DNA from: an uncultured virus (IMG/VR IMGVR_UViG_3300006137_000088)
Taxonomy: Duplodnaviria > Heunggongvirae > Uroviricota > Caudoviricetes
IMG/VR virus record: IMGVR_UViG_3300006137_000088
Length of the DNA stretch: 20,000 nucleotides
Reading direction: 5' to 3' (one strand)
The translations under genes and the position numbers were made by a program. Position 1 is the first letter of the stretch; the number at the start of each line of letters is the position of its first letter. Shown piece by piece: positions 1 through 5,951 of the stretch. The notes beneath the pieces were generated by a model. It did no database searches, was not told where the DNA came from, and worked only from the letters and a program-made list of their open reading frames with translations.

Positions 1-323
1 TTGATGTGGTTGGTCTCAATCGCAAGTTGGAGCTTTATGATAATAAACATATCGTTCCTATAGCCACTTTCGGCAAGAAGATCTCTCAGGAACAGATGTA
101 TAAGCTCCAGAAAAAGGGAGTGGAGCAAATTGTCATCGGCTACGATAACGATGCAAAGGAAGCCACGTCTAAAATTGCTATGGAGCTTGATAAATACTTC
201 GATGTTCTGATTGCTGATATTCCTGATGGTGTAGGCAAAGATTGGGATGAAATGGATGTTGAGGACATCTATGATGTCTTTGCCTATAATCTTAAAACGG
301 TTAGAGAATTTAATCTTGGATAA
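1..323 (+). CDS. DNA primase, C-terminal TOPRIM part (5' partial)
   Basis: Open from window edge; (F)DVV...ATFGKKISQEQ...IVIGYDNDA...KDWDE matches DnaG-type TOPRIM motifs (DxD; KDxxE). Stop at 321-323, 1 nt before the next ATG. Confidence 0.8.
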   Translation, partial: DVVGLNRKLELYDNKHIVPIATFGKKISQEQMYKLQKKGVEQIVIGYDNDAKEATSKIAMELDKYFDVLIADIPDGVGKDWDEMDVEDIYDVFAYNLKTVREFNLG

Positions 324-324
324 G

Positions 325-2085
325 ATGAAAGAGGTAGTATCATTAAAAGAATGGCTGGATAACCATAATATCACTTATTCTTTGCGTAAGGACGTGGTTG
401 TCATTCCTGGATTTGGCCGTTGTCTTATTCAGGATGATTATGACCACATCTTCAAACAGACTAAAGAGGGGAATGTGGTATTCAACAGCATTGAGAATTA
501 TTCTTATCTGATTGCAGATGAGATATATTATATAGTTTTTCCATTTGGTTGTCGGTGGTTTTACATTGATGTCCGCAAAGATCCATCGGAAGTTCAATTC
601 AAAATACTGCGCTATGTTGGCAATACCCCTACATTCCAACATGAATGTGAATTTTATCCTTTAGGTATTCATTCCGGATATGAGCTATTGAATGGCAGTG
701 GCTTATTGAAAGACTGGTGTACTAAGGCTAAGTTTTTAGGCTACAAAGGGCTGGCTGTGGCAGATAGGAACACTATGGCTGCATCTTTGGATTTACAGCA
801 GTCAGCTACTGATGCCGGATTAAAATATTGCTTCGGATATTCATTAACCGTGCGTACTGGCAAGGATAAGGTCGGAGTAAAGCTCTACTCAGCTACACAA
901 CAGGGGTTTAAGAATATGTTGCGTATTCAAAAAGCCATTGCTGTTGATAACTATGAGACAAAGGAGATAGACCTAATCACTCTTCTTAATCTTGCTGAAG
1001 GCAATACCTTGGTGTTTGATAAGTGGAGTGGCCATTGGCTTACCGAAAATAAGAACGCCCTTCAGGATTTTGTTGAAGCATTTGATGGTTGGGTATTCTT
1101 TCAGGTTGACACTTCAGAATATCGAGCCGACAGAATTGACTCTGCATTATTGCAAAGCCAAAAGGCATTTTTCGACAACTTTTATCAGGGTAATCTGGAG
1201 TATTCAATGAATATTCGCCCAGTTATGATTCAAGATGTTTATTATCTTGATAAAGAGGATTGGCGCACTAAAGTTATTCTCAATAAGGTTGATACTGGAG
1301 CAGCTCACGAGCAATCATATAAGCAATATCTCAAAACGATTGATGAGATATATGATGAGTTCCGCACTCTCTTCTCCGATAGATATGACGATGAAGTTTT
1401 CTATGATATGTGTGAAGCGACTGCCGACATCATTGAGAACGCTTCGGCTGCTTATGATCTTAGCGATAACTATGCCCCCAAGTATGATATGACTCCCCAG
1501 GAACGTGAGAAGTATGGCGATACTTTAACTATGTTCCGATCATTGATTGAGGAAGGATTTAAGAAGCTGGTTCCTGAAGGAGAGGAAGAAGCGTATCGTA
1601 AGCGTGTCGAATATGAGAAGTACGTTATTGAAAGCACCGATAATGTTGATTATTTTCTCATCCAGAGAGATGAACTGAATTGGGCCCAGGAAAATGGTAT
1701 CTTGACTGGAATTGGTCGAGGTTCTGCCGGTGGGTGCCTACTACTCTATCTTATGGGTATCACATTTATTGATCCCCTGAAATATGATTTGATTTTTGAG
1801 CGTTTCTTGTTGCCGGAGCGCGCCGGTCTGGAGCCGGATAAGGTAACTGTTATGGCCGATGATATAGAGTCCTCAGATTACTTTGAGTTGGCCTTAGATG
1901 ATGATAAGATACTCTTGCTCGATAAGGATGCTGAGTTAGTTGTGATCAGAAATGGTGAGCAGCTAACCGTATATGCAGATGAGTTGCAAGAAGGTGATGA
2001 CATTCAGTTCGATAACTGTGATATACTTCACACCTTACCCAAGAAACTTCTGCATGAAAATTCGAGCAATAACTCACAAAACTAA
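325..2085 (+). CDS. dnaE: DNA polymerase III alpha (DnaE), N-terminal chain: N-extension + PHP domain + start of palm, ending in a Hint-like tail
   Basis: PHP-like LGIHSGYELLNG and LAVADRN; YFLI...GIGRGSAGGCLLLYLMGITFIDPLKYDLIFERFLLPER is the DnaE signature. ATG at 325 chosen because it directly follows the primase stop. Confidence 0.9.
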   Translation: MKEVVSLKEWLDNHNITYSLRKDVVVIPGFGRCLIQDDYDHIFKQTKEGNVVFNSIENYSYLIADEIYYIVFPFGCRWFYIDVRKDPSEVQFKILRYVGNTPTFQHECEFYPLGIHSGYELLNGSGLLKDWCTKAKFLGYKGLAVADRNTMAASLDLQQSATDAGLKYCFGYSLTVRTGKDKVGVKLYSATQQGFKNMLRIQKAIAVDNYETKEIDLITLLNLAEGNTLVFDKWSGHWLTENKNALQDFVEAFDGWVFFQVDTSEYRADRIDSALLQSQKAFFDNFYQGNLEYSMNIRPVMIQDVYYLDKEDWRTKVILNKVDTGAAHEQSYKQYLKTIDEIYDEFRTLFSDRYDDEVFYDMCEATADIIENASAAYDLSDNYAPKYDMTPQEREKYGDTLTMFRSLIEEGFKKLVPEGEEEAYRKRVEYEKYVIESTDNVDYFLIQRDELNWAQENGILTGIGRGSAGGCLLLYLMGITFIDPLKYDLIFERFLLPERAGLEPDKVTVMADDIESSDYFELALDDDKILLLDKDAELVVIRNGEQLTVYADELQEGDDIQFDNCDILHTLPKKLLHENSSNNSQN

Positions 2086-5050
2086 TACCTCTCTTGTTTC
2101 AGATTGCTATGCCGGCGATGGATATGTGAAACGCAATCACGGCTCTCTCCCTGATATTGATTCTGACTTCAGTGCGGTTCGCCGTGATGAGGTAAAAGCA
2201 TATCTGGAAAGACGCTATAACAAAGATGGTCTCCAGCGTGTCTTTTCAGCTGGTACATTTACAACTGAGAAGATAAAGTCAGTCATCAAAGATGTGGCCA
2301 GAACCCACAAAATATCTCAGGCTACCACTAATTATCTGACAGCGATACTGGATGATAATATGACGTGGACTGACCTTATGAAAATGGCTTCTACCGACAA
2401 ACGTATGAGGGATTTCATTCAGAAATATCCTGACGTGTTTGAGGAAATACTGCCGATTATGGGTCAGGCTCGCTCTGCTGGTATTCACGCCTCCGCACTC
2501 ATCATCACCCCAGAATATGTCAAAGGTGAGCGTGTAGAGTGTTTTGACCTATTGCCTATCCGAAAGATGGGCGACCTATTGGTATCTGAGATTTCAGGCA
2601 ACGATATTGATGCTATCGGTATTTTGAAGAATGACGTGTTGGGCATTAAGGAGCTTACCAGACTTTCAGATACGCTCAATCTTGTTGAGAGTGAGTATGG
2701 TGTCAAGTATAATATTCTTGAAATCGCTTCTAAGTACCTGAATGATGAAAAGGTATTTAAGATCATTCGTGACGGCAATACTCAGGGTGTGTTCCAGATG
2801 GGTGGTGAAGGCATTACTAAGTTTATCAAACGTCTGGCTCCAGACAATATTAATGACCTAATCGCTTCAGTTGCGCTTTTCCGTCCAGGCCCTCTCGATT
2901 CAGGAGCTGCCGACAACTATGTTCGTGCAAAGCGAGGTGAATATGAGCCTACCTATTTATGGGGAACTTATGAAATCTTGAAAGATACTTTCGCTCAGAT
3001 GGTTTATCAGGAGCAGATTTCGCGTGTGGCCCAAAAGGTCGGTGGCCTTAGTCTTGGTGACGGTGTGAATCTTGTAAAGGCTTTGAGTAAGAAAAAGCTG
3101 GAGAAGGTTCGTAAGTTTCAAGCTAAGTTCTTTGCCGGAGCCAAGCAAAACGGGTGTCCTAAAGAAGCTGCTGATCAAATCTGGAGCAATGTAGAGGATG
3201 CGGCAAAGTATTCTTTCAATGCTTGTATCGCCGGCCACGAATACTTGTGGGGCCGACATAAGGAAAAAGGTGCTGGCACTCGTATCAATATTGGTGATAT
3301 GTGGCGTACCAAAAACGACTATGAATGGGCCAAAGCTAACAATAGGCTCGGACTTAGAAATAAGTATCGTAAGTTTGGTTACGGCACTTGTTGGTCTTTG
3401 AATGAAGATGAGAAGCTGGTCATCAATCGTATTGTGGATATACGTTATCAGGGTGTTCGCCCAGTTTATCGTATTACATTGGCAAATGGCAGTACGATTG
3501 ATGTAACCGACAACCATAAACATCCAACATTGGATGGCCAAAAGCGTACTGATGAGCTTATCCCCGGAGAGGATTTTATGTATATCCGTGTGGGTTGGAT
3601 TAAGGAAGATACAACCTATAGGTTTACTGACAAGGGTAAATTGAATAATCCTCGGTATCATTCTAATGATAATGTGGAGGCCCATAGCATTAATGCACAG
3701 AAAGGTCATCAGGGTTTTATGACTCGTGATTCCAATTATACAAAGCTGGAGTATGATAAGCAGCATCTGAAGAAAGATCACTGTGAGAAATGTGGTAAGC
3801 ATTTGAAGCGACTGGAGATTCATCATATCAATGGTGATCATTCAGATGTTGGTGAGAACTATTCCAATATTCAGACTCTATGCCCCAGTTGTCATAAGAA
3901 AGCTCACTATGAGATGGGGCGTGTAAAAATGGGGCGTAAGGGCCTTGGCACTGCTGCTGTGCAGGTAGTTTCAGTGGAATATCTTTGCGATACGGCAGTG
4001 TATGATGTAGAAATGGAACATCCCTATCATACTTTCCTTACTGGGAAGGGGGTAGTGACGTGCAATTCTCACGCTACAGCTTATGGGTTGACGGCTTATG
4101 TTGGTGCATGGCTCAAAACTTACTATCCGACCGCTTTCTATACTGTAGTTTTACGCGACCAAGATGAGGATAAGATGGCGGTTCTTATGAATGAAATCAA
4201 GACTGTCGGTGGCACGGAGCTGGAGAAACCAAATATCAACATCTCAGGTGAAAATTTCACGGCAGACTTCAAAAATAATAAGATTTACTGGTCTTTATCT
4301 CGCATTAAGCAATTAGGCCCTAAAGCGGTAAAGTATATCGTTCAGGAGCGCAATCTGTATGGTGAGTTTTATGACCTGGAAGATTTTATCAAGCGTATCT
4401 TCAAAAGCAAGTTCAAAAACTTTGATGATGAAGGAACGGCAGAGACTCGTGAACGCTGCCCGGTAACAGCAAGAAGCGTCCGCAATCTGATTTTTGCAGG
4501 AGCCTTTGACGCTTGCGAAAATGTTGGCTCAGTCCTGGAACGATATGGCCTATTAGAAAAGGCTGCTACTCTTTTAGGATTTAAGCTGACTGAGAAGGAT
4601 ATTCCTGAAGAAATGCGAGATAAGCATTACTGGTGGAGCCGTCAGCAAATCACTGTTTCTGGTCACGGCACTATTGATTATCGTAGGATCTATGATAATA
4701 TGGAGAAGCCAAAGAGTGTTTCAGCAAACAAGTACATCGAGTTCTCAGACCTCAGTAATATGTTCTATGAGGTCAGAAAAGGTGTCATTTGTGCAGCCAT
4801 CTGTTCTGTGACTGATAAATCCTATAAGGATAAGCGAACTGGCGAAACCAAGCACTTTGGCAAAATCGAGCTTCAGCAGAACACAGAGACCAATATCCTT
4901 ACTATCTGGGATGATTGGGATATTTGGAAAAAGGAGCTGAAGAAAGCAGAGGGTCGAATGATTGTGGCAGTGGTGAATGTAAAATGGAGTGATTACGATG
5001 AGAAGAACACTCTTCAAATCGGTAGAAGTTCATTCTTAAAGTTGATTTGA
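2054..5050 (+). CDS. dnaE: DNA polymerase III alpha (DnaE), C-terminal chain (catalytic palm, fingers, HhH, OB fold) containing an intein
   Basis: SLPDIDSDF, GIHASALII, LKNDVLGIKEL, TQGVFQM, ALFRPGP, VYQEQI, YSFNA/SHATAY, LKTYYP, LSRIKQLG and a C-terminal OB-like segment. Likely start ATG 2054 (MKIRAITH...), overlapping the upstream ORF by 32 nt. Confidence 0.9.
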   Translation: MKIRAITHKTNTSLVSDCYAGDGYVKRNHGSLPDIDSDFSAVRRDEVKAYLERRYNKDGLQRVFSAGTFTTEKIKSVIKDVARTHKISQATTNYLTAILDDNMTWTDLMKMASTDKRMRDFIQKYPDVFEEILPIMGQARSAGIHASALIITPEYVKGERVECFDLLPIRKMGDLLVSEISGNDIDAIGILKNDVLGIKELTRLSDTLNLVESEYGVKYNILEIASKYLNDEKVFKIIRDGNTQGVFQMGGEGITKFIKRLAPDNINDLIASVALFRPGPLDSGAADNYVRAKRGEYEPTYLWGTYEILKDTFAQMVYQEQISRVAQKVGGLSLGDGVNLVKALSKKKLEKVRKFQAKFFAGAKQNGCPKEAADQIWSNVEDAAKYSFNACIAGHEYLWGRHKEKGAGTRINIGDMWRTKNDYEWAKANNRLGLRNKYRKFGYGTCWSLNEDEKLVINRIVDIRYQGVRPVYRITLANGSTIDVTDNHKHPTLDGQKRTDELIPGEDFMYIRVGWIKEDTTYRFTDKGKLNNPRYHSNDNVEAHSINAQKGHQGFMTRDSNYTKLEYDKQHLKKDHCEKCGKHLKRLEIHHINGDHSDVGENYSNIQTLCPSCHKKAHYEMGRVKMGRKGLGTAAVQVVSVEYLCDTAVYDVEMEHPYHTFLTGKGVVTCNSHATAYGLTAYVGAWLKTYYPTAFYTVVLRDQDEDKMAVLMNEIKTVGGTELEKPNINISGENFTADFKNNKIYWSLSRIKQLGPKAVKYIVQERNLYGEFYDLEDFIKRIFKSKFKNFDDEGTAETRERCPVTARSVRNLIFAGAFDACENVGSVLERYGLLEKAATLLGFKLTEKDIPEEMRDKHYWWSRQQITVSGHGTIDYRRIYDNMEKPKSVSANKYIEFSDLSNMFYEVRKGVICAAICSVTDKSYKDKRTGETKHFGKIELQQNTETNILTIWDDWDIWKKELKKAEGRMIVAVVNVKWSDYDEKNTLQIGRSSFLKLI
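3224..4066 (+). mobile_element. Intein (281 aa) with HNH homing endonuclease inserted in dnaE
   Basis: Interrupts conserved YSFNA|SHATAY; starts Cys (CIAGH), block B IDVTDNH, block F VYDVEM..HTFL, ends VVTCN followed by Ser+1; central CEKC...LEIHHINGD...N...NIQTLCPSCHKKAH HNH motif. Confidence 0.93.
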
Positions 5051-5051
5051 T

Positions 5052-5951
5052 ATGTCGTTTCTTATTGATATACGCGAGGAACTGGATGATCAGATTCAGA
5101 AACAGCTTCGCAAGTTTAGGCAAGAATGTGCTGGTACCGGCTATAATGGCTGGTACCGGATTCAAGCCGCCATTGCTAAAGCTCGTGATTTGACCATTTA
5201 CCACGATAAGATTGAGAATTACATAATGCCCAATCTTTTTGATGAGAATGGAGATGCGATTGCGTGGTATCACTGGCGTGACCCCCAGCAAGTTCAGGTC
5301 AATATGATAAAACGTAATCTGCAAACATCCTCCAAACCCAGCAGAAAACGTGGTCGTGTCACTCCGACCAGACTACGGATGCTGATGAAGGAGATTCTGG
5401 ACTATAGAATAAACGAATACTTAAATCCCAAACAAGATATGGCTAAACTTAAAATTCTGTGTATTGTAGGTGGTTCAGGCTGTGGCAAGACTTTAGCCTC
5501 ATTGCACCTCAAATACCACAAGGATGCAAATGTGATTTGCTCCTTCACCACCAGACCCCCCAGACCTACGGAAGTGGAGGGGAGAGACCACCATTTCATT
5601 GACATTGTACCAGACCGAACAGAGCTGATTGCTTATGCTCATTTTGGTGGATATTATTACTATGCTACCAAATGGCAGGTATTTGGTCCTTGCACCGTCT
5701 ATGTCATTGATGAGAAGGGACTTGAAAATCTGCGTAATGACTTTGGTGATGTCTATGACATCTACACTGTCTTGATTAAGCGAGATAAGGCTCTTCGCCG
5801 GAAATCTGGCATTGATGAAACTCGCTTGCGTCGAGATGAACGTCGTGACCTGAAAGATGAGGATTATGACTATGTGATTATCAATAACGGCAAGAAAGCA
5901 GCTCTTTTTGAGAGCATTGAGTGTATCTACGAAGAAATCAAAAACAAGTAA
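5052..5951 (+). CDS. Guanylate kinase-like protein with ~129-aa unknown N-terminal region
   Basis: From internal Met at 5439: ILCIVGGSGCGKT (P-loop), SFTTRPPRPTEVEGRDHHF, VIDEKG, YDYVIINN - guanylate kinase motifs. Confidence 0.8.
   Translation: MSFLIDIREELDDQIQKQLRKFRQECAGTGYNGWYRIQAAIAKARDLTIYHDKIENYIMPNLFDENGDAIAWYHWRDPQQVQVNMIKRNLQTSSKPSRKRGRVTPTRLRMLMKEILDYRINEYLNPKQDMAKLKILCIVGGSGCGKTLASLHLKYHKDANVICSFTTRPPRPTEVEGRDHHFIDIVPDRTELIAYAHFGGYYYYATKWQVFGPCTVYVIDEKGLENLRNDFGDVYDIYTVLIKRDKALRRKSGIDETRLRRDERRDLKDEDYDYVIINNGKKAALFESIECIYEEIKNK

Follow-up and report, generated by a model that had tools for sequence, protein, structure and literature searches.

A phage DNA polymerase III alpha split inside its palm, with extensions of probable Hint origin that may form a non-covalent clasp

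Two dnaE genes and the extensions at their break

We analysed a window of 20,000 nucleotides (the whole stretch of DNA under study) from an uncultured Caudoviricetes virus, IMG/VR record IMGVR_UViG_3300006137_000088, in which the replicative polymerase gene dnaE is divided into two genes whose products carry, at the break, an acidic C-terminal tail and a basic N-terminal head that probably descend from a Hint domain, the fold of inteins. The source record is a 43.9-kb linear virus genome, ~40% complete according to CheckV, which also encodes a primase, a DnaB-type helicase, an endolysin and a large terminase subunit; the closest named relative of the window is Bacteroides phage BS-TP1. The dnaE genes are two overlapping open reading frames (ORFs), flanked by the end of the primase gene (..323) and a guanylate-kinase-like gene (5052..). 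The features of the locus are the following, with the basis of the assignment in brackets where one applies:

325..2085, + strand: dnaE chain 1, with PHP domain, N-terminal part of the palm (GRGSAGG motif) and tail (ORF and Pfam)
1798..1821, + strand: ERFLLPER, the final polymerase residues of chain 1 (alignment with unsplit phage DnaEs)
1822..2031, + strand: tail core of 70 amino acids (AGLEP...DILH), Hint N-fragment-like, with Ala1 and D-K-D-A for the block B T-x-x-H
2032..2085, + strand: variable end of the tail and stop codon, of which 2054-2085 overlaps the start of chain 2 (ratio of nonsynonymous to synonymous substitution rates, dN/dS, 0.31; predicted local distance difference test score, pLDDT, <50)
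2054..5050, + strand: dnaE chain 2, with head, catalytic PDxD motif, remaining palm, fingers, HhH and a true intein (ORF and Pfam)
2054..2143, + strand: head of 30 amino acids (MKI...RNHG), Hint C-fragment-like, with the terminus His-Gly and no Asn (dN/dS and conservation)
2144..2170, + strand: SLPDIDSDF, which holds the catalytic aspartates of the C-family polymerase palm (sequence)
3224..4066, + strand: true HNH-containing intein of 281 amino acids in chain 2 (Pfam and residues)

Chain 1 lies in frame 1, starts most likely at ATG 325 and ends at the TAA of 2083-2085. The ATG of chain 2, at 2054, is in the +1 frame and lies 32 nucleotides inside chain 1; in one close relative (L023) the codon directly upstream of the homologous ATG closes this frame. 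Pfam places a PHP domain in chain 1, together with positions 3-100 of the 260 in the DNA_pol3_alpha profile (expectation value, E, 7e-28); chain 2 takes up the same profile at 94-260 of 260 and continues with the finger domain and HhH, so that a single palm domain is cut at about profile position 100. A first-pass annotation, made from the letters alone, had described the dnaE motif as broken between ERFLLPER and SLPDIDSDF, and both direct reading and these profile positions bear this out. The sequence L-P-D-I-D-x-D shows no variation in 22 heads, and the aspartates of SLPDIDSDF we take to be the catalytic ones by comparison with E. coli Pol III alpha.

Past FERFLLPER, chain 1 runs on for 87 amino acids, AGLEPDK...DDIQFDNCDILHTLPKKLLHENSSNNSQN, and chain 2 opens with the 30-amino-acid head MKIRAITHKTNTSLVSDCYAGDGYVKRNHG before it reaches SLPDIDSDF. 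Conserved in the head are M-K-[IV], D17, G23 and H29. The earlier charge count was correct: the first 72 residues of the tail hold 21 D/E versus 4 K/R. The head of the window contains 5 K/R versus 2 D/E (net charge +3). This opposition extends to the relatives, where the tail core is net negative in all 48 distinct tail-head pairs (mean -7.6; window -17) and the head net positive in 45 of them (mean +2.3; window +3). We also compared the window with nine close loci by the Nei-Gojobori method and obtained dN/dS values of 0.094 for the tail core (1822-2031), 0.062 for the non-overlapping part of the head (2087-2143) and 0.030 for both flanking polymerase cores; the last 17 tail codons reach 0.31. 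From the values for tail and head it follows that both extensions are translated in their own frames and are under purifying selection. The terminal part of the tail (2032..2085), which differs in length and sequence between relatives, is a loose linker. Tail and head are both present in every split form examined.

Two statements of the first-pass annotation went too far. It had seen no block A, yet the tail opens with a block-A-like A-G-L-x-P-D-K-V-T-V, and the counterpart in a sister clade (described below) opens with Cys (C-G-L-x-W-..-T-V). It had also spoken of half a Hint fold; tail core and head together come to ~100 amino acids, roughly three quarters of a minimal intein.

Age and distribution of the split

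The closest relatives form a set of 22 IMG/VR loci (75-100% identity), of which one stops inside the tail and 21 extend past chain 1. Chain 2 overlaps chain 1 in the +1 frame, as in the window, in 19 of these 21. The remaining two (L025 and L026) have a tRNA-Met, a tyrosine integrase gene and a tRNA-Ser after chain 1; chain 2 was not found on their records, both of which are fragmentary (16% and 41% complete), so this says nothing about its absence. The tRNA-Met/integrase/tRNA-Ser stretch (L025:4588-6370) may be a prophage end or an inserted island. Contigs from four public runs of four studies (three of them RNA libraries) are collinear with the window over 1400-2700, with neither an indel nor a joint, contigs being unable to exclude rare forms; within 1822-2146 they differ by two substitutions only, which we read as conservative. 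For the same segment, 1400-2700, mouse-gut metagenome runs of several studies show a full word share; a 21-substitution variant, with a word share of 0.71, occurs in metatranscriptome libraries of three studies, which is no proof of transcription, because RNA libraries may contain DNA. An Rfam scan of 1500-2500 at E<=10 returned six chance-level matches and no intron family (best 24 bits vs a threshold of 70).

More distant Bacteroidota phages keep the split and both extensions, often with genes between the halves. BS-TP1 has a chain 1 homologue with a tail 59% identical to that of the window, then a gene for a PIF1-type helicase of 441 amino acids, and then chain 2 with a homologous head (M-R-I-T-K-I-...-L-D-C-F-V-D-S-G-Y-V-K-L-E-H-G, followed by S-L-P-D). 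This chain 2 homologue (L001:5690-7390; BS-TP1 record 1-1701, minus strand) is unannotated in the GenBank record; it extends beyond the start of the linear sequence, and the annotation places a small ORF (gp1) across it on the opposite strand. Cellulophaga phages phi13:1 and phiST and Tenacibaculum phage Larrie possess two adjacent genes labelled 'DNA polymerase III alpha' with the same cut site and shorter extensions (tail 53 amino acids, head 16 amino acids); here the M-G after G-R may belong to the extein, as the unsplit form has V-G at this place. We examined a large sister clade at 67 loci (L003 and L027-L092, L092 being one Cellulophaga-phage-like locus): the head is in frame in 45 and frame-shifted in 16, and the other 6 loci are truncated. 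In most cases 0.6-1.9 kb separate the end of chain 1 from the head. This interval is occupied in L028 by a gene for an N6/N4 DNA methylase and one for an HNH_3/NUMOD4 endonuclease (E 6e-14), the latter ending on the ATG of the head. The cargo between the dnaE halves thus differs by phage (methylase and endonuclease at L028:4593-5895; PIF1-type helicase at L001:4450-5775).

The 16 frame-shifted loci deserve separate mention. Their head ORF ends in ...G-G-H-S-A-L-P-stop (TAA or TGA), and exactly 7 extra bases (T-R-A-N-N-C-G) precede the D-I-D codons G-A-T-A-T-H-G-A-Y, placing the polymerase core in the +1 frame (L003:7112-7240, L059, L061, L070, L075, L080-L084, L086, L089, L027, L031, L034 and L038). 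These heads are an allele type of their own (FVGKGL), found behind different chain 1 backgrounds. No ATG, GTG or TTG occurs in the polymerase frame upstream of the catalytic motif in L080 and L086, and in L080 the take-off codon CCG recurs 7 nucleotides downstream. The variant looks like a candidate recoding site, either a +1 frameshift or a 7-nucleotide ribosomal hop; T4 gene 60 and the mobA cassette are comparable cases.

Beyond these loci, 752 chain-1-type homologues (E<=0.001) stand alone, the best 120 of them being 398-604 amino acids long, and 670 chain-2-type homologues were found at the same threshold. A search for fused forms among the best 120 of the 670 chain 2 homologues revealed a PHP domain in none. 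The sole contiguous form that we found is P0167, a metagenomic DnaE of 1257 amino acids with an insert of 93 amino acids (residues 484-576) between P-E-R and S-M-P-D-I-D, which begins C-G-L-L-P-N-D-V-T and ends G-K-P before S-M-P-D-I-D. It is a single sequence on one 16.4-kb contig, and as a query it retrieved itself alone among 8000 scored candidates. P0167 may be a natural re-fusion or a form of the unsplit ancestor. A FastTree of the chain 1 cores groups the unsplit, insert-free DnaE of Chryseobacterium phage MA9V-3 (L093) with the split L002, L004 and L092 (support 0.994). This placement within the split Cellulophaga/Tenacibaculum clade hints at either precise loss of the module or its independent gain.

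A continuous ORF, pointing to an indel error, had been named as a sign against the split, and none appears in independent assemblies or in the contigs of the four runs. Taken together, these results show a genuine and ancient split rather than an error, an intron or a recent frameshift.

Similarity to Hint domains and loss of the splicing residues

Having established the split, we asked what the extensions resemble. A profile of 49 tail sequences (A7) was searched against all PDB sequences, and its top two matches are inteins, with the Mja TFIIB mini-intein (5o9j, E 0.0057) ranking behind the fused Aes123 PolB1 split intein (9hth, E 0.0017). The next entries, at E 0.13-0.17, are PI-PkoII and the KlbA intein, and P-type ATPases appear beside them at 0.13. 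The smaller tail profile A1 also finds 5o9j (E 0.014). Weak matches to Pfam Intein_splicing occur in 4 of 26 tails (best E 5e-4); there is none at E<=1 in ten tails of the Cys1 clade, so the four must fall among the other 16. ESM Atlas, queried with the P0167 insert, gave DnaE fragments only (score 0.85); the window tail, once DnaE families had been removed, gave one cluster with Intein_splicing on 28% of its members (score 0.75), which we treat as a lead only.

For structure, we modelled the P0167 insert with 17 and 25 flanking residues in AlphaFold2, using alignment A6; the MAFFT alignments A3 and A4, in which the short heads fell wrongly on the tail, were left out of folding. The resulting model is of low confidence (mean pLDDT 56.6; residues 31-80 at 62-83). 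Foldseek searches with it returned almost purely inteins, bacterial intein-like (BIL) domains and hedgehog domains to about rank 37 (best E 2.8e-3), and VIA-align, applied to the top 1000 Foldseek entries, put 46 Hint entries ahead of the first other fold. The model of the window tail (from A7) has five strands and a mean pLDDT of 58.4 (residues 20-62 at 65-82); 17/17 among the matches listed for this tail-only model are Hint folds, including the N-fragment chain of Npu DnaE. In a fold comparison Hint domains occupy ranks 1-28 of 48,161 chains with moderate scores, and because of these the Hint assignment is made at the level of the fold. In the sister clade the tail starts with Cys1, and the position of the insert at a catalytic motif, with an HNH endonuclease gene separating the two halves, is the fractured-gene layout of Dassa et al. 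(2009). The Hint similarity suspected for the tail was thus found by both profile search and fold comparison, to a moderate degree; for the head, sequence comparison yielded no such similarity.

The residues of splicing are another matter. Position 1 of the module in the window is Ala, without a Cys/Ser block A nucleophile. Across 225 sequences this position is Ala in 148, Cys in 69, Met in 4, Gly in 1 and Ser in 1, with Val and Thr in two unsplit outgroup DnaEs. Cys1 is kept throughout the L027-L091 set, and Cys and Ala alternate over a weakly supported FastTree of 141 chain 1 cores, whose deep support (0.47-0.9) is too weak for the ancestral state (Cys1 or Ala1) to be inferable. At block B, the alignments to 9hth and 5o9j set D34-K-D-A37 of the window on T-x-x-H, in agreement with the earlier reading that DKDA replaces TxxH; A37, which takes the place of the block B His, is conserved to at least 90% among 26 tails. 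The head of the window terminates in ...R-N-H-G before S-L-P-D, with no Asn, Gln or Asp after the His. Related heads end x-H-G-S in 84 of 88 cases and those of the Cys1 clade G-G-H-A/S; a terminal Asn after His is absent from every clade examined. The His before the junction is at least 90% conserved.

The first-pass annotation had given the end as His-Gly|Ser. The His-Gly without Asn stands, but the position of the junction is uncertain by one or two residues (H|GS or HG|S), since the spacing of R and L-P-D in unsplit phage DnaEs ranges from two residues (Moorella phage) to four (Chryseobacterium phage). An H|G junction would make the +1 residue Gly and a G|S junction would make it Ser; by clade it is Gly, Ala or Ser, and under no reading of the junction do Asn and a +1 nucleophile occur together. 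All close relatives of the window have the head Cys within the motif S/N/H-D-C-Y, but among wider relatives the position is C in only 44/88, with A, G, V or S in the others. With Ala for the block B His, no terminal Asn and Ala1 in the window, canonical splicing is excluded.

The extensions are to be distinguished from the true intein further downstream in chain 2 (3224..4066). This has Cys1, a T-D-N-H block B and ...VTCN followed by Ser; Pfam reports HNH and Intein_splicing, the latter at 31.6 bits, below the cut-off of 35.8. It is present in some relatives only, chain 2 being 998 amino acids long with it and 717 without it, and the other lengths of chain 2 (860-1356 amino acids) suggest other inteins. 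Its site, F-N-A|C...N|S-H, is that of the cyanobacterial DnaE intein. Downstream of chain 2, the 299-amino-acid protein encoded at 5052-5951 (+) matches phage guanylate kinase over its C-terminal 165 amino acids (phrog_1815, E 3e-24); its N-terminal 130 amino acids have no match.

A possible clasp, its alternatives and known systems

The polymerase is encoded as two separate chains, cut within the palm between ER and LPDID. Chain 1 contributes PHP and the nucleotide-binding G-S motif (GRGSAGG), chain 2 the catalytic aspartates (PDxD), roles that we take to be those seen in the structures of E. coli and Taq Pol III alpha. As the cut parts GRGSAGG from PDxD, the active site should be complete only in the assembled pair, and activity should need both chains in register. 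In our interpretation a degenerate split intein would sit at the cut, with the 70-amino-acid acidic tail as block A, block B and the following hairpins, and the 30-amino-acid basic head as the C-fragment. Split-intein fragments associate tightly, an acidic N part with a basic C part, before any chemistry. By analogy, tail and head may pair through their opposite charges and co-fold into one small beta domain, so that the polymerase halves would stay permanently joined without a peptide bond, the association having been kept and the chemistry lost. We infer tail-head binding, and its necessity, from the behaviour of split inteins (charge-driven association of their fragments is described in the available text of PMC2677866), the conserved opposite charges and the selection on both parts; on these grounds a permanent non-covalent clasp of the two chains is the reading that we favour, with some confidence.

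Several observations weigh against the clasp and lend weight to another role for a Hint-derived insert, in which the palm halves associate unaided and the beta domain contacts DNA, clamp or helicase/primase, or aids higher-order assembly. The contiguous P0167 retains the insert though it has no need for a clasp. The tails of the split NrdA of phage Aeh1 are essential, yet not for heterodimer formation, according to the available text of PMC3045599, so tails do not automatically mean a clasp. L003 and L028 pair identical tails with quite different heads, and pairing therefore cannot be very specific. Against this stand the uniqueness of P0167 (one sequence, one contig), the conservation of opposite charges in tail and head and the constant presence of both parts in split forms. 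On balance we regard such another role as unlikely, but as the most serious of the alternatives.

A further group of results speaks against the Hint ancestry itself. Both AlphaFold models are of low confidence, and in that of P0167 the part equivalent to the head has a pLDDT of 29-44. No Foldseek E reaches 0.001; for the tail-only model all E are >0.8, with P-type ATPase A-domains mixed in. The head profile, searched against PDB sequences, gives five matches at E 0.45-0.79, none of them an intein. When the tail and head profiles are compared with the window's own intein by hhalign, the probabilities are 1.4% and 0.1%, and the tail aligns over just 14 columns around ADELQEGDD / TDELIPGED. Finally, a profile search of 1.84 billion representatives (43 matches at E<=0.001) brought up no active intein related to the tail; the five matches that were read are DnaE chain 1 forms or P0167, and the 43 also include three large multi-stretch proteins (E 2e-4 to 7e-4). 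In the corresponding alternative the extensions do not derive from inteins: a small beta-hairpin domain of other origin would have entered the palm, and a homing endonuclease gene would later have split the coding sequence, as happened to Aeh1 nrdA. In favour of this, the motif v-x-R-d-G-x-x-x-v-x-a-x-e-L-x-x-G-D is also found in P-type ATPase A-domains, which turn up in both the sequence and the fold lists; the models and scores are of moderate confidence, and the head is without a sequence signal. With inteins as the best PDB sequence matches and Hint domains leading the fold lists, we nevertheless consider Hint ancestry of the module likely, with moderate support, and an origin outside the inteins improbable.

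Residual chemistry is less probable still. It could take the form of N-terminal cleavage, a thioester, ester or disulfide link via Cys1 or the head Cys, or some other splicing route. Cys1 in 69 of the 225 sequences (among them all of L027-L091), the conservation of the His that precedes the junction and the S/N/H-D-C-Y of all close heads would favour it. The block B His, however, is Ala, a terminal Asn, Gln or Asp is missing in the window and in the Cys1 clades alike, the head Cys is retained by only half of the wider relatives, position 1 switches between Cys and Ala across lineages, and the +1 residue varies by clade. The non-canonical chemistry that had been offered as an option is accordingly very unlikely. 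A special case would be a covalent staple (thioester, ester or disulfide) that joins the chains without excision of the Hint part, via the conserved His and either Cys1 (sister clade) or the head Cys (clade of the window); if true, this would be a new outcome of intein chemistry, but we give it hardly any credence. That an artefact, a pseudogene, an intron or a programmed frameshift conceals one continuous DnaE is refuted for practical purposes, since the 32-nucleotide overlap in adjacent frames, which is also the look of a frameshift error, recurs without indels in independent assemblies, many relatives have further genes between the halves, the constraint in each frame is of the coding type, and neither an Rfam intron nor a PHP-bearing chain 2 homologue was found in the searches given above.

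Should the clasp be correct, the module would be a natural split intein that dropped splicing and was retained by a replicative polymerase as the lasting joint between its subunits; it would be fixed in a large Bacteroidota phage family (represented by the 752 and 670 homologues). The usual intein life cycle (invasion, decay and loss) would gain a third outcome, and a link would appear between two answers to gene fragmentation by mobile endonucleases, trans-splicing and interaction tails. Tail and head would also represent small, naturally non-reactive, charge-paired dimerisation tags. The split itself accounts for the labels 'PHP domain protein' and, separately, 'DNA polymerase III alpha', or even for mislabelling, in these phages.

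How does the module compare with known systems? With split inteins the window shares two separately encoded fragments that flank the halves of a host protein. It is not a member of the splicing split inteins, as the three defining residues looked for are absent. The cyanobacterial DnaE split intein (Ssp, Npu) has another insertion site and splices, yielding a mature polymerase of a single chain. A search of the open-access literature found no description of a natural non-splicing split-intein joint. Hedgehog Hint, bacterial intein-like domains and BIL2 resemble the module in having kept the Hint fold while the splicing chemistry was lost or changed, and BIL and hedgehog chains are among its fold matches; these relatives are single-chain and mostly still cleave or transfer, and none is described as a two-chain subunit joint. 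The label 'degenerated intein' is in use for HO endonuclease.

The closest genomic parallel is provided by the fractured genes of Dassa et al. (2009; PMC2677866), whose available text describes split inteins together with a free-standing homing endonuclease gene. There, as here, a phage-type replication gene, dnaE included, lies in two pieces that each end in a Hint part, and the sister clade shares the layout with an HNH endonuclease gene between the halves; the window instead has a 32-nucleotide overlap and no gene between. The split inteins in that text keep five catalytic residues (Cys1, Thr, His, Asn and Cys+1) and have N parts of 88-105 amino acids (PMC2677866), whereas in our module His, Asn and, in the window, Cys1 are gone and the module is shorter, with an N part of 70-87 amino acids. 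The closest functional parallel would be the split NrdA of Aeh1 (Crona et al. 2011, PMC3045599), like the polymerase an essential phage enzyme cut at its active site by a mobile endonuclease gene. The available text presents its tails as novel sequence that arose from the insertion and acts in assembly of the tetramer/holoenzyme, and in that text, unlike the module here, they are not described as Hint-derived (PMC3045599). In its working, the module would resemble both the association step of split inteins and the tails of Aeh1 NrdA.

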